Below, piece by piece: positions 41,661 through 61,600 of a stretch of DNA of 64,000 nt (within the stretch, counting starts at the first letter, position 1; each line of letters opens with the position of its first letter). The stretch lies in contig JBDRJK010000001.1 in the NCBI GenBank assembly GCA_043814985.1, forward strand, positions 34,436 through 98,435, read 5' to 3'. The notes beneath the pieces are model-generated. The model saw only the letters and a program-made list of their open reading frames with translations, ran no database searches and had not been told where the DNA came from. The position numbers and the translations under genes were made by a program. The DNA is from Candidatus Aenigmatarchaeota archaeon (GTDB lineage Archaea > Aenigmatarchaeota > Aenigmatarchaeia > Aenigmatarchaeales > Aenigmatarchaeaceae).

Positions 41661-41735
41661 AATTATATTTCACTTTATAACACACTACTTAATTATAAAT
41701 TGTTTAGTTCTCTAAAATATTACAAGGGTTTTTTA

Positions 41736-42815
41736 ATGGCAGTTAGAAGTATAGCAGGTAGGGAAAAAATTTCTGATACAGACGAAGATTTGAGGAAGTT
41801 GTTGGAAGCAAGAAAGGCAGACATAAAGGTCATAGGAGTCGGAGGAGCTGGAAACAACACTATTTCTAGAATGATGCAAGTCGGTATTGTTGGCGCGCAG
41901 ATATTGGCAGCAAACACTGACGCCCAAGATTTGCTATACACTGATGCAGACGAGAAAGTTCTTTTGGGAAAGGACCTGACAAGAGGTTTGGGAGCAGGTG
42001 CTGATCCGAAAGTCGGATGCGAATCCGCAAGGGAGAGCAGGGAAATGATAAAGGAAGTTTTGCAAGGCGGGGACATGGTCTTCATCACATGTGGATTAGG
42101 TGGCGGAACTGGAACAGGAGCCTCGCCAGTAATTGCGGAGATTGCAAAGAAGATGGGATTACTGACTGTTGGCGTTGTGACCTTGCCGTTCACAATGGAA
42201 GGCAAGCAGAGAATGGAAAATGCAAGGTACGGCCTGGAAGAACTGGAAAAGAACGTTGACACATTAATAGTAATACCAAACGACAAGCTTCTGGAGATTG
42301 TACCTGATGTTTCAATTGTTACAGCATTCAAGATTTGTGACGAGATCCTTGTCAACGCAGTCAAGGGTGTGACAGAACTGGTAACCAAACCAGGTTTAGT
42401 CAACCTAGACTTCGCAGACATAAGGGCTGTAATGACTGCTGGCGGATTGGCAATGATCGGCCTGGGAGAATCCAACACAGAGAACAGGGCATTGGAAGCT
42501 GTTGAAAAGGCTTTGAACAACCCGTTGCTTGATGTTGAGATTGATGGAGCATGCGGAGCATTGGTGAATGTCAGCGGCGGAACAGACGTCACAATAAAGG
42601 AGTGCCAAGAGATAGTGGAGGCAATATCAGCAAAGATATCACCTGACGCAAAGATTATTTGGGGAGCACAGATAGAGAAGGACATGGGTGAAATGGTAAG
42701 GGCCTTGATAATAGTGACCGGAGTGAAGGCATCCCAACTGTACGGAACTGGAACTTTCTTTTCAACAGAAAAGCAACAGCAAATAGAAAAGATACTTGGA
42801 ATAGAATTTGTCTGA
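41736..42815 (+). CDS. ftsZ: Cell division protein FtsZ
   Basis: GVGGAGNN, NTDAQDL, GLGGGTGTG, PNDKLL, NLDFAD. Confidence 0.98.
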   Translation: MAVRSIAGREKISDTDEDLRKLLEARKADIKVIGVGGAGNNTISRMMQVGIVGAQILAANTDAQDLLYTDADEKVLLGKDLTRGLGAGADPKVGCESARESREMIKEVLQGGDMVFITCGLGGGTGTGASPVIAEIAKKMGLLTVGVVTLPFTMEGKQRMENARYGLEELEKNVDTLIVIPNDKLLEIVPDVSIVTAFKICDEILVNAVKGVTELVTKPGLVNLDFADIRAVMTAGGLAMIGLGESNTENRALEAVEKALNNPLLDVEIDGACGALVNVSGGTDVTIKECQEIVEAISAKISPDAKIIWGAQIEKDMGEMVRALIIVTGVKASQLYGTGTFFSTEKQQQIEKILGIEFV

Positions 42816-42886
42816 TAGCAAAGGAAAAGCTTAGATAAACATTTAAATACTATTCAGTATAATAGAAAATAGTTCTAGGTGCTAAC

Positions 42887-43144
42887 ATGGAAGAGGCTAA
42901 TGAATCAAAACAGCAGGAAAAGGCTAGCCATAAGGCTAAGAAAATAGACAAGCCCAAAGGACCTGGTTTATTCACTAAACTAAAAAACAAGATAGCACAG
43001 TTCAAGCGTGTTGTAAGCATAGCCAGGAAACCAGAGAAGGAGGAGTTCATCTCTTCTGTCAAGATAACTGGAACTGGAATGGCATTGATCGGAGTGATAG
43101 GCTTTATAATATTTCTCCTATATTTTCTAGTAAGGTCTTTGTGA
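42887..43144 (+). CDS. secE: Protein translocase SecE/Sec61 gamma
   Basis: RV..IARKP.KEEF....KITG.G...IG.IGF. Confidence 0.93.
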   Translation: MEEANESKQQEKASHKAKKIDKPKGPGLFTKLKNKIAQFKRVVSIARKPEKEEFISSVKITGTGMALIGVIGFIIFLLYFLVRSL

Positions 43145-43148
43145 TATT

Positions 43149-43598
43149 ATGATTTACACTGTAAGGACAACTGTCGGCAGGGAAAACGCGGTCATTGAGA
43201 CATTGACAAGAAAGATAAAGTGTAGGACACTGGACATAAGAACGGTCTTCCATCCAGGCGAATTGAAAGGCTACATATTCGTGGAAGGGGGGGAGGAGGA
43301 CATAGACACCATAATAAAGGCTGTCCCGCATGTCAAAGGCCTAATCAGAAGGGAAGTTAAGATTGATGAAATTAAAAACTTCCTGGAAGTCAAGAAGATT
43401 GAAATCAAGATTAACAGAGGAGATGTTATTGAGGTCACAAGCGGTCCCTTCAAGAACGAAAAGGGCAAGGTGACAAGGGTTGACGAGGCAAAGGAAGAGG
43501 TCACAATAGAACTGCTTGAAGCTGCAATACCAATTCCCATCACAGTTCCAATAGACTCTGTCAGGGTCTTGGAAGCAATTGAGAGTGAAAAGAAATGA
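43149..43598 (+). CDS. spt5: Transcription elongation factor Spt5
   Basis: TTVGRE, LKGYIFVE, KOW GDVIEVTSGPFK. Confidence 0.95.
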   Translation: MIYTVRTTVGRENAVIETLTRKIKCRTLDIRTVFHPGELKGYIFVEGGEEDIDTIIKAVPHVKGLIRREVKIDEIKNFLEVKKIEIKINRGDVIEVTSGPFKNEKGKVTRVDEAKEEVTIELLEAAIPIPITVPIDSVRVLEAIESEKK

Positions 43599-44095
43599 CA
43601 ATAATAAAGGCCGTAATCAAAGCTGGCAAAGCAAGCGCAGCACCACCTTTGGGTCCGTCTTTAGCTGCATTAAAAATGAACACTCAGGATGTTATTAATG
43701 CTATAAATGAGAAGACAAAGGACTTGGAAGGCATGGAGATTCCTGTTACAATAGACGTTGAACCCTCGACAAAGGAGTTCAAGATATCAGTGGGAACGCC
43801 GACTTTAACAGCCCTGATTAGAAAGGAACTGAAGGTCAAGAAGCTATCAAAGGCTCCATTCAATGTTTATGAGAAAGAGGAAGTCAAGGAAGAGTTCAAG
43901 GAAAGCATCAAGTTCGAGCAAATCGTCAAACTAGCCAAGATGAAGATGGATGACATGAAAACAGACGACCTCAAGAACGCTGTCAAGCAAACTGTCTCTT
44001 TCTGTGTGAGTGCTGGAGTCCTTGTAGAGGAAAAAAGGCCCAAAGAGATACTAAAAGAGATTGCAGAAGGCAAATGGGACGAGAAGATTGTCTGA
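43595..44095 (+). CDS. rpl11: 50S ribosomal protein L11
   Basis: GKASAAPPLGPSL, INEKTK...G..IPV; conserved position after spt5. Confidence 0.93.
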   Translation: MTIIKAVIKAGKASAAPPLGPSLAALKMNTQDVINAINEKTKDLEGMEIPVTIDVEPSTKEFKISVGTPTLTALIRKELKVKKLSKAPFNVYEKEEVKEEFKESIKFEQIVKLAKMKMDDMKTDDLKNAVKQTVSFCVSAGVLVEEKRPKEILKEIAEGKWDEKIV

Positions 44096-44144: not shown

Positions 44145-44654
44145 ATGATTTTGTCAAAGATGTTTTTGTTCCTGATTGCAATTACAATAGCAGTATCAGG
44201 CATGCAGATACTGGGATACCAGGTTCTGGAATTGATCATAGTAATGATGGTGGTTGACTTCCTTACACTGGGAGCATTGTTCCATCTGGAAAAGGCCCCT
44301 TCCCTGATAAAGAACAACCCAATAAATGTGGAAGATGACATAGTTCCCAGGCTCAAGAAGATTGACAAGCTTGATGCCATAGAGGAGAACTCCAAAAACA
44401 TACTCAGCCAATTATCTAATTCTGGCTTTGAGGACAAGCTGAAAAAGCAGAGCGACGACATAACCTATCTTTTAGACAAGATGGGGAGGAAGACACTAGA
44501 ACTGGAAGAGAGAATAAACAAGTTCGGAAACGGCCTTTTAGACTCATTAACAAACCTGAACAAAAGGGTAGATGGCCTAGAAAAGACAGACGAGAAAAAC
44601 AACCAATTTTCCTCAAACGAGTTTGTTTATCTGAAAGCAGATGAAAAAGCTTAA
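44145..44654 (+). CDS. Hypothetical 2-TM protein with cytoplasmic coiled coil
   Basis: Two N-terminal hydrophobic helices followed by heptad-like repeats. Confidence 0.7.
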   Translation: MILSKMFLFLIAITIAVSGMQILGYQVLELIIVMMVVDFLTLGALFHLEKAPSLIKNNPINVEDDIVPRLKKIDKLDAIEENSKNILSQLSNSGFEDKLKKQSDDITYLLDKMGRKTLELEERINKFGNGLLDSLTNLNKRVDGLEKTDEKNNQFSSNEFVYLKADEKA

Positions 44655-44679
44655 ATTCTTTTGCAATTAACTGTTTTCT

Positions 44680-44958
44680 ATGGAAAGGTTTTTTTGGATA
44701 ACAATGTTAACTGTAATAGCAGGATTGTTCCAGCTATTATTCTACAAAAGCATAGAATTGACCATAATACTCTTTTCTATTAATTTCATGGTTTTCGGGC
44801 TAGAACTGGCAAGAACAACATCCAAAAGGGGTGTTTTGCTAAAGCTTGAAAGCATAGAAAGGGACCTCAATGACACAGTAAGCAACCTGATTTCCCCCCA
44901 AATAGCCAAAATAGGGGGAAGTAAGAAGGAAATCATAGAGTGGCTGAATAAATTCTAA
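44680..44958 (+). CDS. Hypothetical 2-TM protein with short coiled coil
   Basis: Two hydrophobic helices, KLESIERDL, C-terminal IIEWLNKF. Confidence 0.65.
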   Translation: MERFFWITMLTVIAGLFQLLFYKSIELTIILFSINFMVFGLELARTTSKRGVLLKLESIERDLNDTVSNLISPQIAKIGGSKKEIIEWLNKF

Positions 44959-45012
44959 TACGACAAAAAACTATTTTTCAAGTATATATCTATAGATATT
45001 TGAACTGTCGGG

Positions 45013-45411
45013 CTACTGTCGGAGGCTATAGAACTTTTTTCGACTTAATGTCTTTGATATTGTTAGACCATCATCTTCCATTTGCTTCAGGTATTCATTG
45101 CACCTTGTTCTCGACAGTTTTATGAGTTTACTCAATTGATAGGGAGTGATCTCCCTGTATTTCTGCAGTATCAGCCTGATTGCTTCCTTTGTCTTTACTG
45201 ATACAGTGCGCCTTTGGAGTGTTATGCCGCTTGCCGAGATCACGTCATTGACACTTCTCAAATTCGACTCTATCTTGTCGATTTTCTGGTTTAAACCCTT
45301 TAATCTCTCAATCTCAATTGCTATCTGAGCATAGCGCATGTCCAGCTGCTTCAACAAAGTTTCTATTGAATCCTTCTCTTCATCCTTGGACTTGAAAAAA
45401 GACATAAACAT
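45013..45411 (-). CDS. Coiled-coil + C-terminal winged-HTH DNA-binding protein
   Basis: Heptad region followed by ITPYQLSKLIKLSRTRCNEYLKQMEDDGL...RKKFYSL. Confidence 0.8.
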   Translation of the reverse strand: MFMSFFKSKDEEKDSIETLLKQLDMRYAQIAIEIERLKGLNQKIDKIESNLRSVNDVISASGITLQRRTVSVKTKEAIRLILQKYREITPYQLSKLIKLSRTRCNEYLKQMEDDGLTISKTLSRKKFYSLRQ

Positions 45412-45556
45412 TACTATATTCTTTCATTTTCCTATATTTAAAAATTTTTCGACAGCACTGTTTTTCTCGTATTGTCGGGATTCTGCCTGTTTTTCCTTTT
45501 TAACAGGTTTAATATCATCGACATGAATCTTTTGTTATAAAATCTGGCCAGGTCTG

Positions 45557-45574
45557 TTGTACAATATTGTACAA
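45557..45574. promoter_or_regulatory. Perfect 18-bp palindrome TTGTACAATATTGTACAA, candidate operator
   Basis: Read directly; 11 bp upstream of the ATG at 45586, between divergent HTH genes. Confidence 0.6.
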
Positions 45575-45585
45575 AAGGTTTTTCA

Positions 45586-46608
45586 ATGACAATAAAGGAA
45601 CCTAGAAAAATTATAATCGAAGCTCTGATGAAGAATCCAGAAGGTTTGACACTTCTTTCACTAGCTGAGGTAACTGGATTGCACCGACACACAGCCACCA
45701 AATATGTCCATGAATTGATTGGAGCAGGGGTTGTCTACCAGAGAAGTGTCGGGGCTGCAAAGCTCTGTTATTTGAAGAAAAAAATAGAGACTGAAACTGA
45801 CGAGAAAAGGGTTCTGGATATGCTTAGGAAAAAGAGGAAAGGAAGCGTCCAAATGAAGCTTTTGATTGCTGTGGTTGTCTTGTCGTTCCTGTTGAGCGAA
45901 TCTGTGATCATAGCATATGAGAACAGCTCCTTCATCAACAATACCAACTTCTCGAACACCAGCCCAGTCACATCAAGCCTCAATAATTCTGACTTGAATA
46001 TCAATTTCAATATAACTGAAAATATCAACAGTACACAAAATAGTTCTGTCGAGCCATCGACAAATGAAACTGAGTTTAATAATAATGGAACTGTCGGAGG
46101 AACTAACGGAACATCCCTAAACACTACTAATGAAACAATAGAAGCCCCGATTATTGAAAATACAACCAATGTAACTGAGCCTGTAAATGCTACAGAGGAC
46201 ATTAATCAGACTATAGACCTTAACTTGACTTTTAATGAAACTTTTGAAGAAAATGAAACTGTTTTTGAAAACATAACAGAAATTATTGAAAGCATAACTT
46301 CTGAAATAGGAAATATTACATCTATAGAACCGATTCTTGATGTAAAGTTGCTGTATCCGCAGAAAATAATAAGGGGTGAAAGCCTGGATATAAGAGCTGA
46401 CCTTGAAAACAGCGGTTATTTGGCTAAAAATGTTGTTCTCAACTGGCTGCTACCTGCTGGTTTTAACATGGTTTCTGGGAATATGAGTGAAAATTGCGGG
46501 GATTTGGATACTGGTGGTTCCTGCTATTCAGAGATTAGCGTTATGACTAATCTGACAACAGGCATTGGCCTGAATGAAATAAGAGTTGTGGTTGATTATG
46601 AAGAGTAG
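45586..46608 (+). CDS. Membrane-anchored winged-HTH protein with extracellular N/T/E-rich stalk and C-terminal Ig-like domain
   Basis: N-terminal HTH (GLTLLSLAEVTGLHRHTATKYVHELIGAG), single TM LLIAVVVLSFLL, many NxS/T sequons, beta-sandwich-like C-terminus. Confidence 0.8.
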   Translation: MTIKEPRKIIIEALMKNPEGLTLLSLAEVTGLHRHTATKYVHELIGAGVVYQRSVGAAKLCYLKKKIETETDEKRVLDMLRKKRKGSVQMKLLIAVVVLSFLLSESVIIAYENSSFINNTNFSNTSPVTSSLNNSDLNINFNITENINSTQNSSVEPSTNETEFNNNGTVGGTNGTSLNTTNETIEAPIIENTTNVTEPVNATEDINQTIDLNLTFNETFEENETVFENITEIIESITSEIGNITSIEPILDVKLLYPQKIIRGESLDIRADLENSGYLAKNVVLNWLLPAGFNMVSGNMSENCGDLDTGGSCYSEISVMTNLTTGIGLNEIRVVVDYEE

Positions 46609-49600
46609 CACTAAGTCAGGACAGAGCCAATTATTGATTCCCCTACTCTTGATTATCTCATCGGCAATGGTATTTGCCACAAATGTCACTCTAAATTTGA
46701 CCAAAAACACAACACCATCAGGAGCTTTTGTAGGCATTCCAAACAGTACAAATGAAACTAATAATTCGCAAGAATTTGTATTCCCAATAGAGGTTTGGGC
46801 TGAAACCTACATTGGTATGAACATAGATGGAAATGTTGTTAAAGCTCACTTGTTCTTGGACAACCAAACAAAAATTGAGAACCACCAAATCAATCTTTAC
46901 CTGAATGGTGTTTTCTTTGGTTCTGATTTAACTGATGTTGAAGGCATTGCTGAATTCACTGTTTCTGAATTTGGGGAATATAAGATATTTGCTGTTTTTG
47001 AAGGCAGAGACTTCTTGAACCCATCTGAAATCAACCTAACTGAGATAATTCAAGAAAATGAGGTTATTTTCGAGATTCTTGGAACAGAGCAGGGTGATAT
47101 TGAGATTGGGGAACCTGTTAAATGGGAGAAGAAATTCAGATTATTTAACCCGAATGACAGGGATGCCTTAGCAGATTTCGAATTGGACTTTCCTGAAGAT
47201 GCTTTTAGCGTTAATGTCGCTGAAAAGGACACGAAAAAGATGTTGAATTTGATTAAGAAATCCATTAGGGAATGGCTCAAAGCCAATGAGAGTAGGGAAT
47301 ATATGCTGGAATACTTCACAGATTCACCAGTCGTAATCGAGGAACTGGTAAACAAGTACAAGAAAGTGATTAACATCAGCTCTCCGATACACTATGAGAA
47401 TGTTCCTGTCTACACTGACATTGAAGAGACTTCCCAAGATTCCATAAGGATTTACTGGATTGTTGATGGTGAGAGAGTAGATATTACTAATAATCCTTCA
47501 TTCAATGTTATTTTCATTGATTCCAATGGAAATGGCCTAATAGATAGAGTAGAGTGGGTTGTTCCACATCTTTCAGACCAGATATTCGAAATTTCAATTA
47601 CTGTCTTGAATGTAGATACTCTTGTAAGAGATGGTGATAACTGGGTAGTCGCATTCAATACAACTGGAACAGCCAATTTGACCATTAATTCCACAAATGC
47701 TGGATGGACTGAGTTTCTGACAGACAACACAAGCACATTTGACGAAATGTTACTGTTGGATATTAATTGTGGCAATGTTTCTTTGAAAGACTCATTACAA
47801 TTGATTGATGAATTTGATAATGTTTACAATTACTCTGACTTAACTGCAAATGACACAATAGACATAAAGCATTTGTTTGTTGAGAATTATTCTTGCAATG
47901 ATACTGGTCTCATAAGCAATAACATGTTAAAAGCTGGTTATGCTGCTCTACAATTCACCTTCGGAGACCAGATTGCTTATGCTTATGATGCTGCAGTAGT
48001 ATGTAACTGGTCAACAGATACTGTTAACTGGGCAGATCAACAAGGTGGTGGTGGTTCTGCATGGGGAACTTCAAATACAACATGGAATCTAGGATATAAT
48101 TGTAGCGAAGCAGGCGGTCCTTCAACTGGCTGCTATATCGCAAACATAACAATAAACATGTATGGTGCTTCGGCGAGCCCTGCATCTGGTGGATTAGGTT
48201 TTGTAATATTTAGCAATGACTCAACACAATTCTTTCCTCTTGCGATTAATGTGGGTGGCGCATATACTTATGGTCCTGTAGATTCTTGTGGAGCTAATAA
48301 CAACTATACTGGTGGAACAGGTTATCCTGGTAGTACACCAAACAGCACTCCAAATACATGTAACATAAGTTTTACTGACTGGTTTAATGTAACATCATAC
48401 ACGGTTAATTGGTATATACCTGGTAAGGGTTCTGTGTCAATTCCAACAATTAGTTACCAGTGGTGTTGGGAAGACGCGCTTCCAAAATTAGATAATCCAG
48501 CTGTTAATGGCACACAATCAGGATATAGTGCAGGTTGGGGAAGTATATTCAACTTTTCAGTAGAAATATGGGAACCTCAAGGCAGTGAAAGTAATGTGAG
48601 TTTATGGTATACTCCAACTGCAGGAACAGGTTGGATGTTTGCAGGATCAAGAAACGATACTTCGCCTCCAACTTCTTCTCCAGGCAACTTGACTAATTTT
48701 ACTATAAACTATAGCTGTAGTGGAGGAACAATTACAGACAGTTTATCAAATGATTTGGGTGTTGTTGGGGCAGCAAAATACTATAAATTCAATGCTACTG
48801 ACCCTTACTCCAATAAAAACGATACTTTTGATTCTTATGGAAACATATATTTCACACCTACAAAAGATGATGTAAATGTTGTGAACGAGACTCCTACAGC
48901 TAATATTATTATAAACAGAAGTGACACAACTGATTTTGTTGTAGAGGTATATGACAGGGAAAAACAGAGTTACGGTAGTGGACAGTCTGGAAAAATATGG
49001 GTGTCTACCTATGAATATGATCAGAACACCAGTTATTTGGTAAGTACTAATTCCACTGGGCATTTAGTACAAACATTTACGAATGCTATCTGGTGTGGGG
49101 ACGAAAAATATTATCTTGGTGTTCATAAATGGAGTGGTGGAACAGACAGTGATTCTTGTGTACAAAACAATGTAACTGAAAGTTCAAATTTCACCCTGTT
49201 GGGTAGTTTATACAACACATTAAACATTCCAGATGGAAGTTCAAATTTCACCCAAGCTCAAACAATAGATTTTACTGCAAGTGTGGCTGATGACTGTAGT
49301 GTTGGAAGAACAGCAACTTCCACAATTAACATCACTATGGTTAATAACGACACTGAATATTTTTGTATTGCTTCAGCAGCTGGTGAATGTTCTATAAGCA
49401 CAGACATTTCTTTCCCGACAGGATGGTACAATGTTACCATAGTTTCAAACAAATCTTACCATAATGATGGTTATTCTATTGATCAGGATGTTTTCTATCT
49501 ATTACCTTACAGGAATGTTTTCAATGAGTCAGTAAATCCAGACTCTGCATATTGGAGCTATCCAAATTGGAACTTCTCTGTTTTAGCAACTTCAGGCGAC

Positions 49601-52600
49601 AACGACCAAATGAATGTATCGCTTTATCTAAGGAAACAAGGTGAAAGTTATTCAGAATGCACTGGGTGTTTTAATCAGACCCCAACAATTTGTGTTAACT
49701 GTGAAAACCAGTCAGTATTCTGGTATCGTAATTTCACTGAACCAGATTCAGGTAGCAATTGGTACTATCAGTTCAGGATGTATAACAACCTAACTGGTGA
49801 ACTTGAAGACCAAACAACCGAGCATTCATTCTACGTGGACAGTATTCCAGATGAAAAAATATATTTGGAGAACGTAACTCAAAGCCCGTCTTCAGGGCAA
49901 TGGGGTGGAACTCCATTCACTTTCAATATTACTGTTAACACGACAGGTATAAACAATGTAAGTGTATTCCTTTGGACTTCAGACAGTGCTACTGGTCCAT
50001 GGTCATTGGTGGAATACCAGAACTACACTATCCCTCCTGGTGGCTGGCAAATAATAAATTACACGACATATTTCGACTGTAATGACATTGACACTGACAA
50101 GTATTTCTTCTTCAATGCAACCAACTACAACATGTCAACAAATACAACAACACCCCAAAGTTTTGAAATAACAAGAGATAGAATAGAGCTTGATTACTAC
50201 TGGGGGCATGACTCGACAGCTAACAGGTCAGGTGACCAGACTGATTTCTTGCTTTTCCGTGCAACCAATGTTAATGGCAGTGACATGGGAAGCTTCCCAA
50301 TAAAATACTCTGTAACATCTGGTAATTCAACAGAAACATATTATACAGATAATAATTTTGTAACTAATACAAATAGTACTGGATTTGCTGAATTTTATTT
50401 CAATGCTACTTGTTTGAATGATTACATTGGAGCACCAAAATTCCAAGTCAGAGAACAGCAATGGAAGGCTCAGTTAAATGACTCTGAACTAGATTGTTAC
50501 TATCAGAATGATAGTTCTGATATCTGGTATAGAAACATGAGTGTTATGGGTAATATCCTGATAACACTATCAAACCCCGACGGAACTGAAAATGTGACTC
50601 AGGAGAATATAATGACTTTCCTTGGTTCCAGCGATGATGACTGTGGGGATTCTCTGAAATTGAACTATACCTTTGGATATGAGGAGATAAAGTACTATGC
50701 AAACAATACTCCGACAACTGGTTTTGACTGTGGTAATTCAACTCTGATTGGTGCCAACGCTTATCGTTGCTACTGGCAGACTGACACTGATACGCCTGTC
50801 CAGGATTACAATGCATCAATGTTTGTGAACAGAATTGGTTACTATCCCAACCAGACATTGGATGATGCTTCCAGAGGATGGCTGTTCTATGTTGATGCAC
50901 TAAGGCAATTCACAAACATAAGTGTTGTGCCTTCGTCAGCCCTATGGGATACAACAGACTGGAACTTCTCCGTCATTGCAACATCAGGAGATTACAACAA
51001 TGAAACAATTGTGCTGCAATTGAAACAGGGTGCTGGTGCATGGCAGAACTGTGAAGATGCTTTAGCACAATGCTACAACATGACTCCAACCAACTGTACA
51101 CACTGCATAAATGAGACATACTTCTGGCATGCCAACTTCACTGCAGACGATGCAGGAACGTGGTTCTACAAGTTCCAGATGAACAACAGCGATACCTATG
51201 TCATAGACGAGGAAACAACTGGCACTGATAGTTTTGACGTGCTGGCAAGCGATGTAAAGATATATATGGAGAATGTCACCAAGTATCCAACGACAGGAAG
51301 CTGGGGTGGTGGCAACTTCACTTTCAATGTTACTGTTAACACGAGTGGTATAAACAATGTTTCTGTATTCCTGTGGACTTCCAACAGCTCCACTGGGCCT
51401 TGGACATTAATTGAAGAGCAGAATTATACTATTCCACCAGGAGATTGGCAACAATTTAATTTTAGTAATGCTTATTATTGTGATGATATAGGGACCAATT
51501 ATTTCTTCTTCAATGCAACGAACTATAACCTGTCGACAAACATGACAAGTCCCCAGAGCTTCACAGTGACAAAGGATACTGTGATATTAGAATACATAGA
51601 GGGTAACAACACAATTGCAAACAGGTCAGGAAGTCAAACTCAGAATCTATCTATAAGATTGAGTGATGGCAACGGTACATACCTAACTGATTTCAATATG
51701 ACCTACTATGTGGAGACAAATAGTTTCGAATATGATTCTGGTAACAATGTGACTTCTGACTCTTCTGGTTATGCCAATTATTCATTTGAACCAACATGTT
51801 CCGGTCCAAGATACGAAGTCGGGAATCAAAACTGGAAAACTGCTGCCTTGGAACAGCAGTGTTATCAGACCAATGACACTGACACTGCAGGGTTTGCCTT
51901 GAATCTGACAGTGATGGGCGACTTCAACATTAGCTTCAATTATCCTGAAACTGTTAACCAAAGTCTTGGCGATCAGGTAATATTCGAATCTGTCATAAAG
52001 GACAATTGTAATGTGGAATTAGGGGGAATAGAAGTAAGATACAATGCAACAAATGAAAACTTCAATGACGAATGTTCTTTGGTTACAAGTCCAGCCACTG
52101 GTCTTTACAGGTGTTTTGAGGGCGGAACAAACGGCTGGGATTCAACAGGAGCTAGGCAGGGTTGGTACAACGCAACTATTAACGCTACCAAAGATTTCTA
52201 CTGGAACAATGTCACAACCAAAGCAGAGGAAGGCCTTGGTCATTTCTATCTATACAGAAAACCAACATTGAGTGGAGATATTGTTGTTCCTTCAATTGGA
52301 GGATGGGCTTTGGACAGAAACTTCTCAGTCAATGTTACTGATGATCCTATTGACAATGTTACTGTTTTCCTATGGCATAGGAGCTCTGGAGGAACTGGAA
52401 ATGTCTGGGAACAGATAAGCACATCTAAATTATGTTCTGATTGCGACAATACCAATGTGAACTGGACTGATGTCAGTTACAACTGTTCATTCGCGTCTGC
52501 TGGAGGTTCTGTTGATTATAAGTTCAATGCCACTGATTTGGATTTGAATAATACTGAAGCTTCAGGATCGTTCACTGTTAATTACGACAATGTCAGTGTT

Positions 52601-55600
52601 ACCAACATAACACCTGTTGCTACTGCCACTATTAACAGAACAGACACCACATCCTTTATCATCGGACTATATGATTTGGACAATAGCACTTCTCCAAATA
52701 ACACACAAAGTAAGATATGGTTCACAACAACTGATGCAGCCACATGGGAAAGCGATGTTGCTGCTCCAACGATTTATTCAAACTCAACTGGTCATTTGAA
52801 CAGGTCAATGACAGCAAGTGGTTGGACCAACCTTTTGGGTTGTGACAATACATACAGCCTGGGTGTTCATTATTGGAAGGGTGGTTCTTACGGATCCAAC
52901 TGTCCTCCAGGTTTGGTTGACAACATAACCTCCTCTATTATATTCACCTTGATGGGAGAATTGAGCAATACCATTTACTGGCCTGTTGGAACCCAAAACT
53001 ACACTGTCGGAAGCGGTATCCACTTGAATGGAACTGTTGTCAGGGATAGCAGCTGTGGTGCAGCTACTGGCATAAGCGTTCTATATAACATTACAAACGG
53101 GACTCATGCGTACAGCTGTGACGGTGTTCACAGGGGCAACGGTGTTTACAACTGCAGCTGGGATTCCAGCGACAAGGCAACAGGTTGGTACAATATCACA
53201 ATGATATCTTACGGCAGCAATTACCATAATGGGACTGATGTTCAGAGTGATGCATTCTACTTGAGAAGTGGAATTCAATTAGAAGACATTTCAATGGAAC
53301 CTGTTGGTGGTGGGAGCTATGGATATTCACCGTTTAACTTTACTGTAAATGTAACATCATCAGACAATGAGAATGTCACTGTTTATTTGTATTTGCAAAA
53401 TGTTTCTGGCTGGTTCCTGGAGAATCAAAGTTCCTGTGTAAGTTGTGATAACACCTACTTCAAGTTCTCCAAGGATTATGACTGTTCGAACATTGGTTCT
53501 TGGGATTACAAGTTCAATGCCACATCTGTCACAGGAGCAGTTAACAACTCATTATCATCCAATAGCTTTACTGTAACAACAGATACAATAAGTATTAACT
53601 ATGGTTCTGGCAACGAGTCTTACGTAAACAGAAGCAACACTAATCCTGAATACGAGATTCCACTTGTTGTCCAAGTTTGGGATACTGTCAAGAACGAGTT
53701 GACAACTGACATAACACTAAGCAACATAAACGCATATGTTACAACAAGCGGTTCAAGTTGGATGGAGTTGTCTGGTGGGCTGGGAACTGTTGTCAATAAC
53801 ACAACTCACTTTAATGTAACATTCGATCCTAACTGTTCATTCTCCGCAGGAAAAAGAAACTGGAAGTTCAACATATCTGGTGAGACTTGTTATGGTGATG
53901 CTGAATCCAGCAACTATAATGTAACTGTTGTTGGTAATCTGTCTGCTTATTACATGAGTCCTACTGGAGGAGCAATATATGATTTAGGAGATAATGTTCC
54001 ATTGTTGGGTAATCTAACAGATGAGTGTAGCAATGACATCATCAATTCAAATGTCGGGTTCCAGCTGAACTCAAGTCCTTCCACAAGTTATTTCTGTACT
54101 TCACCTGGCAATGTCACTGGTAACTTCTATTCATGTGATTGGGATTCAAACAGTTATGATGTAGGCTATTATAATGTCACAATGATATCTTGGAATGATT
54201 CTTATGTCAATGGAACAGACTTTGAAACAGATGCAATCGAGATAAAGTCTATACCTGATCTGGATGTTGCTGATGTCAACCCAAGAGCGGAGGGGTGGGT
54301 CAAGACATTCAACTTTACTGTAAATGTAAGCGATAATGCTGGTGACACTGTCAATGTTTATCTTTGGGAATCTACTGATGGAAGCGAACCATGGATTCAG
54401 ATAGGTGGAATAAATAACTGCACAACTTGCGTTAACGAAACCATGACATGGAACAAGACATACATTTGTGATGATGTCGGGAACAACAGGGTATTCAAGT
54501 TCAATTCAACAGACACAGAAGGTAACAACTATAGCACATCTCTAGTGGCGGGTGATTATGTTGGTGGAAGCAACACTTTCAATATTGAGAAGAATAACAT
54601 AGGCATTGAATACATAATTGGAAATGAAACCAATGCTAGTACTGTCGACCCTGCATTGTTTATTGTGAGGGTGTATGACATTGACAATTCATCCAGTTAC
54701 TATATGACACCTAGCATTGATATTTCATTCAATGTAACCAAACAAGGTTTGAGTAATACTTTCTTTACTGTTGGCAGCAATACAAGCAATGCAACAGGTC
54801 ACATTATCTACTATTTCACACCAGACTCAAGCTTTGCTTCTGTAAAACAAAACTGGACAGCATTTACTTCTGCAGGTGAGGGATGCTACAAACTAAACCA
54901 AAGCGATTATTACAATGTAACAACCCAAACACACGTTCCAAAAATAGAGAACGAGACAGTTGATCCTCAAGTAGGAGGATGGGGAGACGCCAGACAGTTT
55001 AATGTGTCGATATACGATGCCAATGACACTGCCGTTGTAAGATTGTGGAAGTCAACAAGCACTGGAGGACCTTGGACATTTGTAGCTTATCAGAATTATA
55101 CTGATGTTGGAAATTGGGAAAATGTATCCTTCTTGATTAATTTCACTTGCACTGATTACAGAACAGAGCCGTGGTACTTCAAGCTAAATGTTAGTGATGA
55201 TTTCAACAACACGAACTCGACTGATACACCAGAACCCGAGAACAATTACACTGTCAACAAGGATGCTGTAATATTTGAAGAATTTTATGGCAATAACTCA
55301 ACTGCGAATCGTATTGGAAGCCAAACCGATTTATTGTCTTTAAGATTAAGAGATGGAAACGGAACCTATTTGACTGATTTCAATGCCACTTTTTATGTGA
55401 CTACTGACGGAGTCAGCTGGCCTGGTAGTGGTGTTGTCAATCAGAGCAATAGCAGTGGTTATGTTCACTATAACTTTAATCCCATTTGTTCACCAAAGAA
55501 CCAAGTAGGTGACCAGATGTGGAAGGTTGAAGTCGGTGACTCGTGCTATCAGACCAACAGCACCAACACATCAGATTTATTCTTGAACCTGACAGTTATG

Positions 55601-58600
55601 GGCAACATAAACCTTACTTTCACTAGGCCTGATGGAACTACAAACTATACACAGGAAGATCCAATACTGTTCCAGGGTTATACTTACGATGATTGTGGAG
55701 GTGCTATTGCGCCAACAGTAAAGTTCTATGCAAACAATTCAACTGATTATGGCTTTGATTGCGGTAGTGTACAAAAAATAGGTGAAAACGTATTTGAGTG
55801 TACCTGGCAAACCCAGATAACAACACCAAGGGGTTGGTACAACACAACAATGGATGCGAACATAACAGGCCATTATAACAACTTCAGCATAAACTCTGGC
55901 ACTTCTGGTTTGTTCTACTTGAACCCAATATATAAAATAGAAAACATTTTAGGAACACCAACTACAGATGGTTGGGGATACACCAACTGGAACTTTTCAG
56001 CAATAATATCTTCTGGCGATCCTGACACAAGCTATCCTTTGGAGATATTCATGAACAAAGGTTCCCCTGACTTCACAACAGCTTGTTCAGGTTCAACATG
56101 TTTTAACCAGACAACTGTAGAGTGCATTTATCCCGAATGTGTCAACAAAACAGTTTTCTGGTACAGGAACTTCTCTTACAATGATCAGGGAACATGGTTC
56201 TTCAAGTTGAGCTTAGCAGCTGAAGAAACTTCTGGTAATGATATTGTGACAGTGGTAAAAGATGATATACTCATAAACCATTCGTTTGGTAATGGTGAGA
56301 GTGTAAACAGAAGCGGTGATCAATCAAAGCTTTTGGTTGTTTTTGTAAATGATACGGACAGAAACCTGTCAGCAGCAAATCCTTTTGTAAATGTTTATTT
56401 CAATGTAACCAACAACACAGCCAGCAATTATTTAATTTACGGCGCTAACTCTACAAACACAACTGGTTATTCCAATGCAACATTTAACCCGAACTGTGAT
56501 TATTCCAATGGAACTCAGAATTGGTTTTCCTATGTTTCAGGGGATTCAAACTACAATGATGCGAATTCCAGTATATTCAATATAACAATCTACGGAGACC
56601 TAAACCCATCTGAAATTAGAACTTACAACACAACGCATGAAACAAATTATTTCTTCCATGGTCAAAATGTAAACATTACTGGAATTGTAGAGGATGACTG
56701 TGGTAACAGAATCTCAAATGAAACAGGAATAAACGTAACATTCGAGGTTTTCAAAAATAATACTTATCCAGCATCGGCAGATACGTACTGTTTTGATGTA
56801 ACCTATCTTGGAAACGGAATATACAGCTGCCTATGGGACACCAAAACATATGAGAATGATACTTACAAGATAAGAATGGATGCAAGCAATGTAAGCTTCC
56901 ATAACAATGGGACATATTCGAAGCCCGGAGCATTTGGTTTGAATGTACCTCCAAACACGCCTCCAGTTGTAAGCGATGGGAGCGTAACACCAGACCCGGG
57001 TGGCTGGGGTTCAACATTCAACTTCTCAGTGAATGTAACAGATGGGGATGAATTCCAAAACGTTACTGTTCATTTCTGGGAATCTCCTGACGGAAGCGAG
57101 CCATGGACCTTAATAGAAGATCAAACATGCACAGATTGTGTTAACACTACTGTAAAAACTGTTTACTTCAGCAAAAACGATTACAGCTGCCAGCAAATAG
57201 GAATTAGATATTACAAGTTCAATGCAACTGATAATTCAAGTGAGGCAAATGCAGGTTCTGATTCTGATGATGGACCTTACAGTTTTAACCTGACAAGGGA
57301 TAATGTTGAATTCATTAATCCTGTTGGTAGTGCTGGTACTGTAAACAGAAGTGGTAGTCAGGACATATTCCTTGCAGTCCGGATTAACGACACCACTAAA
57401 GGTGTTTTAGTTGAATCTAATGTAACCGCTGGAAGGTTCTGGATAACTTATGATGAACTAAACTGGAACAGTGGAAGCAGTAACAGAACCTCTAACTCAT
57501 CTAGTTATGTAAACTACACATTCGACCCAACATGTACACCTACAAGGTACAATGTAAGCAATGCACAACAATGGAAAGTAGGAGTTTTGAATGATTCTTG
57601 TTATATTGATGCTAACAGTTCTAATTACACCTTGACAATAAAGGGTGATTTAACTAATTCAATGATTAGTCCTGACGGCGATGATGTTTTCTATGATCTT
57701 AACAACATTACATTTGAAGGAAACATAACGAGTGATTGTGGTGACAACTCTATAAATGATGCTAATGTTACTTTCAGCATCTCGCATCAAGCTTCTACTT
57801 ACTATGGCTCTCCGGACCCAGCAAATAACAACGGGACATTTTATAATGCTACGCATAATGTGACAGGAACGCCTGGTGGAAACTATTCATTTACCATGAA
57901 CTCCTCAAGGAATCTTTACAATCCTGATACTGATACCTTATCGAATGCATTCCATCATCAAATTGATCCTCAATTGACGAGCGACTATGTATCACCAGTA
58001 ACAGGATCATGGGGAACAACATTCAGTTTCTATACTGCAGTAACAGATGATGACGATGATGTCAACTTGACATTGTGGGTAAGATGTACAGGTGGAAATA
58101 CTACATTTAATCCTCTCTTTGATTGTAATGAATCCTCAGATTTCAAAGCTTGGGGGTCGCCCTCATCACAAATATGTGCTGATTGTGTAAGCCAGCAAAT
58201 GAATTCTAATTGGACCACTAGTATTGCAGGACATATAGGAGATTACGAATGGTTCTTTAATTCATCAGATAACTATGGTGGATCGAACAACACAACAATA
58301 AAAACATTCAATGTTACAAGAAGGAATGTTTACTTCAATGTAAGTCAAGGCAATAGTTCAAATGTAAGCAGGATAGGGTCAAACAATACATTACTCCAAG
58401 TAAGACTATTTGATGCTTTCAATGATGCCGGACTTAGTGGTTTCTCGGTAAAATTCTATGTAACGCTTGATGGTGCTATTTGGGACTCTTCTGTATCGAA
58501 CACAACATATAGCGGTGGTTATGGTGATTACTACTTCAATCCTACTTGCCCATCACCTTTCTTTAAAACTGGCAGGCAATGGTGGAAAACTACTTTTGAC

Positions 58601-61600
58601 CAAACCAATGCCTACAATACAGGCAACTCAGTCAACTATACTGTGGACATAAATTCAACCCTTAATGGAACAGTGATATACCCAACAGGACAGATAGTGT
58701 TTTCACAGGGAGACACTGTGGAAATTATAGCCAATCTAGAAGATGAATGTGAATACATTGATAATGCTGACAGTGTTGTTTTCAGGGCATATCCTGGAAG
58801 TTGGTCATGCGCACCAGAGCCTGCAGAAAATCTGAACAATGGAACGTACAACTGTACTTTGGCCACCGGATCATTGGGAACTGACATATACAATCTGACA
58901 ATAAACTCTAGCAAGTCTTATTATTATGATGGTTATGATGTAGAGCAAAATGCATTTGAAATAAGGAAGGCTCCTGTCCTAGCAAATCATAGTATAACAC
59001 CAACAGCAGAAGGTTGGGGTTATAATTATACAATAAACCTTACTGTCCAAGACCAGGACCTTGGTGACGTTGATAATGTAACTTTGTGGAAGAGTGTTGG
59101 TGGTGGGGATTGGGAATTCGTGCAATCGCAGAATTGTTCAAGTTGTACTGCCGAGACAACTAAAACTTTCTATCCTCAATTCAACTGTACTGACTACACT
59201 AACGGTCCTAATATCAACCTCAAATTCAATTCAAGCGACAGTTATGGATTGGCAGATGAGACATCCAACTTCTCCGTGACCTTCCAAAAGGACAACGTAT
59301 CATTCACAATAGTCGAGGGCGGTGGTACAGTAAACAGGGAAACTGACACAAAGTGGTTTATAGTTATTGTCAATGACAGTGACAGGAACAATGACACCAT
59401 AGACAATTCACAAGAAGTTGTGGACGGTAAGTACTGGTTCAGTTATAGTTCAGTGCCCATATTTGACGAGGGGCATGATGTCCAAACCAATGCAAGCGGC
59501 CACATGAGCCATGAATTTGCTCCTAACTGTACTTATCAGGTTGGAACAGAGTATTGGTATGTTGAGACAACTGGAAACGACTGTTATGCTGACACAGCTA
59601 CAAGCCAAACTGGAAACACTTATGTTTTGAAGGGTCAGTTGAAAACAAACCTCTTCGAGCCAGTACAATACTCAGAATTTAATGTTACTCAAAACATAAC
59701 GTTTAGGTGGAATGTTTATTCTGATTGTAGCAATGAAGGCAACATCACTGGCGTGACCAACACAATTGACTTGAATAATTTCGATAACACATCAACCTGT
59801 TCATCACCACAAGAAGAGGGAGCATCTGGAGTTTACAATTGTACCTGGAACTCAACAGGAGAACCAGAGGGCAACTGGACAGTGAATGTCACATCTGAGA
59901 AAAACCCATCACTCGAGTACAACACGAACTACAGCAGCTATCAGGATTGGTTCTTCTTGAACAACAAAAATGCAACTGGAGTAAACCCCTTGGTTAATCC
60001 ACCCAATGGAGGATGGGGAGTCTCTTACAGATACAACATAACAGTAAATGATTCTGAAAACGACACAGTATCATGTAGCCTGTATACTAACACAAGCGGC
60101 TCATGGGTGTACAGAGGCATTAACGACATAGTAACACCAGGCAACTGTTCAATCGTGGTTGACAACTTCACTTGTAGCGACCAAGGAACAGGCCAATACT
60201 ATTTCATGATAAACGACACTTACAACACAATAAACACCTCTGAAACTCTAGGTACAACCAGTGGTCCTAGTATTGGAAGGGATGAGGTAAGTGTTACATT
60301 AGTGCAATCAGGCGGGTATCCTGATTACAATGTAAACAGGAGCGGAGGCCAAAACACTACATTGATGCTATTAGTCAACGACACTATTAGAAACCAAGTA
60401 ACTAATGACACTAACGTAACTTTCTGGGTAACCACTGATAGGGTCAGTTATGACTCTGGAAACGTTGTAAACACAAATGAGACTGGTCATGCGATTTATG
60501 TTTTCAATCCAAACTGTAGCGCACCTTTCTATGATGTTGGAAACCAGACTTGGATAGGAGGAACTAATGATTATTGTTATAATGATACAAACACGACAGC
60601 CAACTTTAGTTTAATGTTATGGGGAGACTTGATAAACACTGTGATTGAACCCACTAGCGGCTTCACAGTCTTGCGTGGAAATAACACAACCATAAGGGTA
60701 AATGTAACAGATGATTGTTCTGCTGCTGTTAACATAGATACAATTAATCTAACATCAATACAGGAGCCAAATGAATATGGCTGCTCGCCAATTCTAAACG
60801 AGACTGGAACAGGTTTCTACAATTGCACATTCAACACAAGCTCACCATCACTGATGCCTGCAAGATATTATAAAATAAATGTCAACACAACAAAACAGAA
60901 CCATACTTTCGGTGACATGAATGAAACTGATGCATTCTTCATTGAGACAGAACCCGTCTTAACAAACGAAAGCGTTACACCTGAACAGGCAGGCTGGGGT
61001 TCAACATATACCTTCACTGTCAACTTCACAGACGAGGACTTGGACACAAGCACTGTAACAGTATGGTTCAGGAAATGCACTGATGAGAATTGTACTGCAT
61101 ACAGCCCTGACTGGAGTGGTGCAAACTCTATAAGCAACAGCACTGTTACTGGTATTGGAACAAGTGTTTCATTCAACAAGAACTGGGTGTGTGGTGATAT
61201 AGGTTACTGGCAGTACAAGTTCAATTCCAGTGATTCAAGAAGCTATGTCAATGAAACAGCAGTCCACCAGTTCAATCTAACCAGAGATGCCATATCAATC
61301 GAACACTACTATGGGGACAATTCTACTTCTAACAGAAGCATCCCAGAATCCCAGATGTTGACTGTAAGGGTGTTGGATATAGACAGGGGATATTATATCC
61401 ACGGAGGAGGCTTGCCTTCGACTGTAAATGGAAAAATACTGATTACAAACGACACTGTTAGTAATTTCCTTACAGTATTTTCTGACGTTGCTTCGTCAGG
61501 AGGAGGTTACTTAAACAGAACATGGACTCCCAATTGTACCTTTGAGATCGGACCACAGAAATGGAAAGCCACCATGGAAAACGATGGCTGTTATCAAGAC

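Follow-up and report, generated by a model that had tools for sequence, protein, structure and literature searches.

An OmpR/PhoB-type winged helix (Trans_reg_C) is the defining feature of the ToxR/CadC/TcpP family. In ToxR, TcpP and CadC, an N-terminal DNA-binding domain is joined to a membrane segment (PMC10269533). A similar arrangement occurs in a stretch of 64,000 nucleotides from a Candidatus Aenigmatarchaeota archaeon (assembly GCA_043814985.1, contig JBDRJK010000001.1, positions 34,436 to 98,435 of the forward strand), hereafter called the window. Here, a gene for a 340-aa protein with an N-terminal winged helix-turn-helix (HTH), a hydrophobic segment and an immunoglobulin-like (Ig) outer domain lies between a divergently transcribed regulator gene (DIV) and the gene of a giant surface glycoprotein. 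We propose export-coupled autoregulation by a two-regulator cassette heading a SPEARE-type giant operon, a model that may be right or wrong with about equal probability. It builds on direct observations, namely the anatomy, the gene order, the fusion, both DNA motifs and their separate co-occurrence with the two regulators.

The 340-aa protein has the predicted DNA-binding domain and the predicted membrane segment that define transmembrane regulators in silico in the broad sense (PMC10269533), while the OmpR-type HTH and the fixed outer sensor domain of the ToxR/CadC/TcpP family are lacking. Instead, it combines an IclR/MarR-like HTH with a conserved peptidase-I-type site and interchangeable cargo of up to 14,000 aa. 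The nearest archaeal counterpart is ArnR/ArnR1, which likewise flanks a surface-structure operon and controls it via inverted repeats; ArnR differs in that its sensor is inside, its transmembrane (TM) part is C-terminal and it binds upstream of the B recognition element (PMC10117864). Bacillus RsiV also has a cytoplasmic regulatory N-terminus followed by a membrane segment, with signal peptidase as first cutter, but it binds a sigma factor and its amphipathic helices shield the site until lysozyme is present, whereas here the site is followed by a glycosylated stalk that is predicted to be disordered (PMC6066255). In Rem/Env of mouse mammary tumour virus, a signal peptide about 100 residues long goes on to regulate nucleic acid once signal peptidase has cut it off (PMC5371415); this eukaryotic virus protein acts in RNA export after p97-dependent extraction and is an analogy only.

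The giants, too, have described relatives. SPEARE of Nanohaloarchaeota are giant membrane-anchored proteins, with relatives noted in Aenigmarchaeota and at least one laminin-G domain as criterion (PMC6642349), and have been re-read as VirB4/TraG-like ATPases with a Sec signal (PMC10266531). The giants described here are alike by architecture, with an N-terminal Sec signal, a giant Ig-rich outer part, one TM segment, a cytoplasmic VirB4/TraG/HerA-like ATPase and a coiled-coil tip, and reach 14,236 and 14,525 aa, compared to the 9,409 aa reported for SPEARE. The term 'helix-turn-helix' does not occur in the main texts of PMC6642349 and PMC10266531, in which we came across no description of a regulator, an operator or an HTH-bearing signal, and the main text of a giant-gene survey (10.1101/2023.11.21.568195) mentions neither DPANN, Aenigmarchaeota nor HTH. 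No description of the cassette was found in the literature; the supplementary tables of PMC10269533 and PMC6642349 could include these proteins. SPEARE-type giants are leading candidates for host attachment or feeding in DPANN archaea, and we found no account of their control in the literature.

Anatomy and conservation of the cassette

The cassette comprises the following features (window coordinates).

45013 to 45411, minus strand: DIV, with an N-terminal predicted coiled coil and a C-terminal winged HTH; recognition helix LSRTRCxEYL invariant (Pfam, alignment)
45433 to 45442, minus strand: TATA-like element of the putative leftward (DIV) promoter, by sequence; homologous loci have a similar AT box in this position
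45449 to 45454, no strand: hexamer 1, TCGACA/TGTCGA, predicted DIV site (cross-locus motif)
45473 to 45478, no strand: hexamer 2, TGTCGG, predicted DIV site (cross-locus motif)
45508 to 45515, plus strand: TATA-like element of the putative rightward (giant operon) promoter; core conserved across 64 loci
45518 to 45523, no strand: hexamer 3, TCGACA, predicted DIV site directly downstream of the TATA-like box (cross-locus motif)
45557 to 45574, no strand: dyad TTGTAC-N6-GTACAA (TTGTACAATATTGTACAA), predicted operator of the fused HTH (cross-genome conservation)
45586 to 45777, plus strand: winged HTH, residues 1-64, recognition helix LHRHTxxKY; the protein's most conserved region (Pfam, alignment, model)
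45778 to 45915, plus strand: basic linker, hydrophobic core of 12-13 residues, then a c-region that ends IIA|Y after residue 110; together a likely signal peptide, with a peptidase-I-type site
45916 to 46326, plus strand: sequon-rich stalk of variable length, weakly conserved, predicted disordered (alignment, model)
46327 to 46608, plus strand: Ig-like beta-sandwich (CARDB/DUF11/NEW3-like), its final codons overlapping the giant's ATG (homologues, model, fold search)
46598 to 64000, plus strand: giant glycoprotein, first 5,800 aa, with its own signal peptide; presumably SPEARE-type, its ATPase end probably on another contig (end of C11 of the same assembly)

The two small open reading frames (ORFs) described in the initial annotation were recovered at 45586-46608 (plus strand, 340 aa) and 45013-45411 (minus strand, 132 aa), as was the 11-nt overlap between the giant's ATG at 46598 and the stop codon of the 340-aa frame ending at 46608. 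DIV had been described as a coiled-coil/winged-HTH gene, which agrees with an HTH_24 match above the Pfam cut-off at residues 81-116 of 132 and with the predicted coiled coil; its translation may start at the second Met, giving 130 aa. In the 340-aa protein, residues 10-53 match HTH_IclR above the Pfam cut-off, and no OmpR/ToxR-type HTH (Trans_reg_C) was among the six Pfam matches at E≤0.1. The AlphaFold2 model displays a winged HTH at residues 6-63 with MarR/Sso10a-like matches in Foldseek, a helix at 70-118, a low-confidence region at 121-213 and a confidently modelled beta-sandwich at 251-339. The predicted membrane segment has its hydrophobic core at residues 92-103 with basic residues upstream, and 22 of the 24 N-X-S/T sequons fall within residues 113-243. 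An internal restart at Met90 was considered and rejected, as this Met is not conserved in the alignment. The conserved terminal YE of the Ig domain coincides with the overlapping ATG, which points to translational coupling with the giant. The best Foldseek matches of the Ig domain among solved structures were subunits of the eukaryotic translocon-associated TRAP complex (14-16% identity), probably a generic fold likeness only. Querying the ESM Atlas with the 340-aa protein gave no usable feature match; the top match of DIV was an Aenigmatarchaeota cluster.

A homology search found 83 proteins (query included), 73 of which cover at least 94% of the query; 55 were aligned. A profile of the 340-aa protein matched at least one of its parts in 244/371 genomes of the phylum Aenigmatarchaeota, and gene maps covered the first 136 loci plus some 80 additional loci with DIV. 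Based on this near-full-length coverage and the alignment we rejected a fusion artefact; the HTH and the secreted part are not merely separate genes joined in error, and the fusion noted in the initial annotation is genuine. Named relatives are mostly Ca. Aenigmatarchaeota, and the few differing taxon labels, on short contigs, are probably due to misbinning. The gene order DIV, HTH-signal-Ig, giant recurs across families of the phylum, so that the synteny with a divergent HTH gene and a giant, which the initial annotation had made a test of its proposal, was borne out by the gene maps. DIV itself occurs in 135/371 genomes, mostly as a single copy, and is not always found at the head of a giant: 19 DIV genes had no called divergent gene, and one genus has three genomes with DIV some 15 kb beyond the giant's end and no TGTCG boxes.

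Four forms of the locus were mapped, namely HTH-signal-Ig followed by a giant as in the window, a direct HTH-signal-giant fusion, signal-Ig or giant without HTH, and a solo HTH ahead of a giant. Complete direct fusions measure 14,236 aa (genome G076) and 14,525 aa (G334). Among the 82 DIV loci with a fused HTH of the HRH type (see below), 27 have an ORF of at least 1,000 aa, 52 leave the fetched stretch inside an ORF and three lie at contig edges. No longer homologues of the 340-aa protein, in the range of 596-2000 aa, were scored, though the genomes contain fused giants, and the Ig profile had no clear copy in the two complete fused giants. The window's family also has a paralogous cassette of two solo HTHs, signal-Ig and a giant, with no DIV. 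In this second cassette (L145 and L270 in G008:C3; L143, L144, L146 and L147), the giant is shorter, with 2,673 aa in G008, and the ATPase is encoded further down by a gene of its own (727 aa).

The split forms bear on the question of whether the fusion is incidental, i.e. whether a small autorepressor gene lost its stop codon and joined the signal peptide of the next gene, leaving ordinary operon autoregulation. Family f1 has the gene order HTH, HTH, signal-Ig, giant, solo HTHs stand before giants, and the tree shows 13 changes of the fused state, all of which would be expected under such a history. Against this stand 95 distinct fused sequences from several families that keep the basic linker and the cleavage-type site, and HTHs that are joined directly to giants as well. 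We therefore consider an incidental fusion quite improbable.

Two operators upstream of the giant operon

The dyad consists of two TGTACA hexamers 10 bp apart; by eye, a related TGGCCA lies 13 nt upstream of it. The initial annotation had reported palindromes between the divergent genes. The palindrome at 45557-45574 is present and conserved across genomes, but within the window it occurs at chance level (3 sites with ≤2 mismatches compared to 2.9 expected), and its reality therefore rests on cross-genome conservation. The second motif, TGTCGA, had been overlooked. In 64 loci a (T/C)(A/T)TAT core ends 5 nt ahead of a TGTCGA-type hexamer, with the T invariant and the A kept in 60/64. The common layout is thus the TATA-like core, 5 nt, the last hexamer and, in most loci, the dyad 26 or 39-41 nt further on.

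The dyad (≤2 mismatches) was found upstream of 52/57 HTH-signal-Ig genes, 10/13 HTH-giants and 16/19 cut ones. Among 19 solo HTHs it occurred at a single one, which has an HRHT helix; one other solo HTH with an HRHT helix has no dyad. For comparison of the two motifs, DIV loci were counted by distinct DIV C-termini, with duplicates and loci with less than 450 nt upstream dropped. With a fused HRH-type HTH, 71/82 DIV loci have the dyad, compared to 1/38 with a secreted gene without HTH. At least two TGTCG boxes were present in 82/82 and 37/38 of these loci, respectively, and solo HTH loci without an adjacent DIV had a mean TGTCG count of 0.1. The background among 527 was 11 for the dyad and 64 for at least two TGTCG boxes. 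The single HTH-less locus with a dyad keeps a part-deleted HTH; at locus L163 (G130:C41), where the HTH looks part-deleted and the dyad nearly intact, the HTH was likely lost recently. The two operators hence separate cleanly, the dyad going with the fused HTH and TGTCGA with DIV. A relaxed dyad pattern, formulated post hoc, gave 64/73 HRH-type loci and 1/48 others after thinning to 121 rows, at a background of 6/521.

Two results weigh against assigning the dyad to the fused HTH. The loci are related, and five independent pairs on well-supported branches were concordant for the dyad in about 2.5 cases and never opposite, which is not significant. Furthermore, 9/73 HRH-type loci lack even the relaxed dyad. 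On balance, because conserved operators tie both regulators to the promoter region, these operators and the synteny make it very likely that the cassette controls the giant operon.

In the organism's own genome (an 808-kb assembly) we found two perfect dyad cores and 10 near matches, compared to 20 for a control pattern. A wider regulon was rejected on these counts, and since there are only two perfect cores, the giant operon is probably the sole target of a dyad-binding protein, as judged from sequence. The second perfect core (C6:1234) apparently lies inside coding sequence. A reading of the dyad as an RNA hairpin was disfavoured: the local fold equals that of shuffled sequences (z -0.02), and the co-occurrence of the dyad with the HTH favours a DNA site, although bases flanking the inner side of the dyad are complementary in 61/65 loci, which would suit a hairpin.

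At the usual archaeal distance from the TATA box, the transcription start would precede the dyad by a few to about 20 nt, and the dyad would lie just inside the transcript, in a repressor position. The near-unique operator at the start of the giant operon would also suit a tether, by which the membrane-held HTH serves mainly to keep the promoter at the export site, with the 30-40 kb message made beside the translocon and regulation a secondary role, and the HTH is membrane-linked in most HRH-type loci. This arrangement would be compatible with our model. However, there are 38 loci where neither HTH nor dyad accompanies these giant or Ig genes, and a dyad over the likely early transcript fits repression better, so that we regard a tether as improbable.

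Three further TGTCG boxes surround the DIV stop codon (44961-45022), and at least two such boxes occur near the stop codon in 34/112 distinct DIV genes. A TGTCG-rich stretch on contig C14 lies inside a long ORF.

Signal peptide or membrane anchor

The fused segment consists of a 12-13-residue core and a polar stretch ending in x-x-A, followed by sequons. A strict, hand-made peptidase-I-type rule was applied after dropping 50 duplicates and 21 short or cut frames; it held for 90/95 fused segments (23/26 clusters at 50% identity) and 24/33 unfused ones, compared to 15 of 181 internal hydrophobic segments of the own genome that served as controls. With a stricter core threshold, a peptidase-I-type site was present in 53/54 fused segments of the resulting subset. 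Ile108 and Ala110 are conserved to at least 90% in the alignment of homologues, and in unfused forms the homologous segment is a plain N-terminal signal. Fused and unfused segments are alike in hydrophobicity, with medians of -0.37 and -0.32, and far weaker than six C-terminal anchors (-4.58). In addition, complete fused giants have a second TM segment and a cytoplasmic ATPase at their far end, so that leaving the N-terminal anchor uncut would fix a chain of about 14,000 residues at either end. The 'one TM helix' of the initial annotation is therefore present as a hydrophobic segment with the anatomy of a signal peptide, and we consider it probable that this segment is cleaved after Ala110.

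Several points count against this part of the model. The giants' own C-terminal TM segments are likewise weak (0.7 and 0.2), so that hydrophobicity alone is indecisive; AlphaFold draws a continuous helix from residue 70 to 118; the site rule was written after the sequences had been seen; and unfused forms follow it less often (24/33). Moreover, signal peptidase I and presenilin-type peptidase are both missing from the own assembly, which is 91% complete, and by eye the presenilin-type peptidase fails to track the fusion across the phylum, while within the order the pattern is suggestive. Signal peptidase I was found in 40/42 genomes of the order and presenilin-type peptidase in 104/371 of the phylum. 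In 3/3 genomes of the same genus (G013:C4, G011:C18, G012:C6) the two genes are no more than about 2 kb apart, and because they are neighbours there, their joint absence is likely an assembly gap. M50, rhomboid and A24 peptidases are present in the own genome, the A24 gene about 7 kb from the ATPase fragment on contig C11.

The initial annotation had proposed a ToxR/CadC-like surface sensor that controls a costly adhesin. Control of the giant gene is likely, both operators being conserved; the sensor part fared less well. In such a sensor the anchor would be retained, or an outside signal would open the peptidase site as in RsiV, and host contact would alter DNA binding. The topology fits the broad definition of transmembrane transcription regulators (PMC10269533), RsiV provides a precedent for a ligand-gated signal peptidase site (PMC6066255), and conservation is fair both in the Ig domain and over the 17 residues that follow the site (mean column majority 0.60 and 0.63). 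On the other hand, the HTH is not of the OmpR/ToxR type, the peptidase-I-type site is conserved, and the outer part has been exchanged between the small Ig protein and giant N-termini at least nine times on the tree. The stalk between segment and Ig domain is long, variable and predicted to be disordered, there are split forms whose segment is an ordinary N-terminal signal, stand-alone HRH-type HTHs that have dyads are found in the same position, and the overlapping ATG accounts for part of the terminal conservation of the Ig domain. Taken together, these findings render a transmembrane sensor unlikely, though less so than the other alternatives.

In the export-coupled model that we prefer, the precursor would enter the Sec pathway and signal peptidase I would cut after Ala110, freeing the glycosylated outer part, which is the small Ig protein here and a 14,000-aa giant in direct fusions. 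The HTH would remain on the inner side on its signal stub and act from the membrane; alternatively, it may be freed by an intramembrane protease of the M50 or presenilin type. It would then bind the dyad just ahead of its own start codon and block polymerase, so that each exported precursor would supply one repressor subunit, providing negative feedback on a very costly gene. DIV would bind the TGTCGA boxes at both promoters and set the on/off state of the divergent pair. The position of the dyad is the one indication of repression, and this counts against the model. A tentative claim, to which we give somewhat less than even weight, is that a signal peptide here incorporates a prokaryotic transcription factor, with each exported giant host-contact protein leaving one self-repressing subunit as a copy counter that couples secretion to transcription, along with the first two operators for SPEARE. 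Should the segment be cleaved, a signal peptide carrying a DNA-binding domain would constitute secretion-coupled control of a kind for which we found no bacterial or archaeal description in the literature, and some predicted 'transmembrane regulators' may then not be anchored sensors. Both regulators offer small soluble domains with predicted sites, which makes in vitro testing possible without culturing the organism.

Release of the HTH might also be achieved by prepilin peptidase, cutting a class III-like G|Q site before the core on the cytoplasmic side. A GQ before the core is reminiscent of class III signals; the own genome encodes an A24 peptidase, and GQ precedes the core in 25/33 of the giants' own N-terminal signal peptides (46598-46680 in the window). 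Among fused segments, GQ was found in only 2/54, a subset that omits weaker cores, several of them with GQ, and the protein in the window has GSVQ. We regard this route as highly improbable.

Giant surface protein and genomic setting

The window is the end of contig C1, and the giant ORF at 46598 leaves the contig after 5,800 aa with 384 sequons. The far end of complete fused giants comprises a hydrophobic segment, a P-loop ATPase and a coiled coil; the ATPase was assigned on the basis of its Walker A and B motifs and of its best PDB matches, which are HerA proteins. This ATPase occurs in 157/371 genomes, mostly at the ends of very long frames. In genome G006, of the window's family, DIV and HTH-signal-Ig are followed by a 10,205-aa giant ending in the ATPase. 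This giant shares 62.6% identity with that of the window over 3,091 aa, and its final 170 aa match contig C11 of the own assembly at the broken end. The window giant is thus presumably of the SPEARE type and joins the ATPase fragment on C11 across an assembly gap. No laminin-G domain was matched by Pfam in its 5,800 aa, with about 4,000-5,000 aa missing from the assembled contig. By coordinate arithmetic, DIV heads an ATPase-bearing giant operon on a single contig in 11 further genomes. The cassette can serve as a marker for the 5' ends of giant genes, genes that are usually broken in assemblies.

Past the ATPase fragment (C11:86704-90253) lie genes for a 507-aa charged, coiled-coil-type protein, a secreted protein of 377 aa and a MinD-like protein; in 15 other genomes that were examined, a charged gene related to the first comes after the ATPase. 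Archaea this small do not usually have two-component genes. On G076:C1 (L137-L139), the genes after the 14,236-aa giant look by eye like those of a histidine kinase, a receiver and a CheC-like protein.

Immediately ahead of the cassette, at 41720-44095, is a housekeeping run whose translations we take to be ftsZ, secE, spt5 and rpl11. The cassette adjoins this run and GC is flat across the region, and there is therefore no obvious mobile island. Between rpl11 and DIV (44145-44958), two small profile-related membrane proteins of 169 and 92 aa are encoded, a pair whose position is kept in many loci of the window's family.

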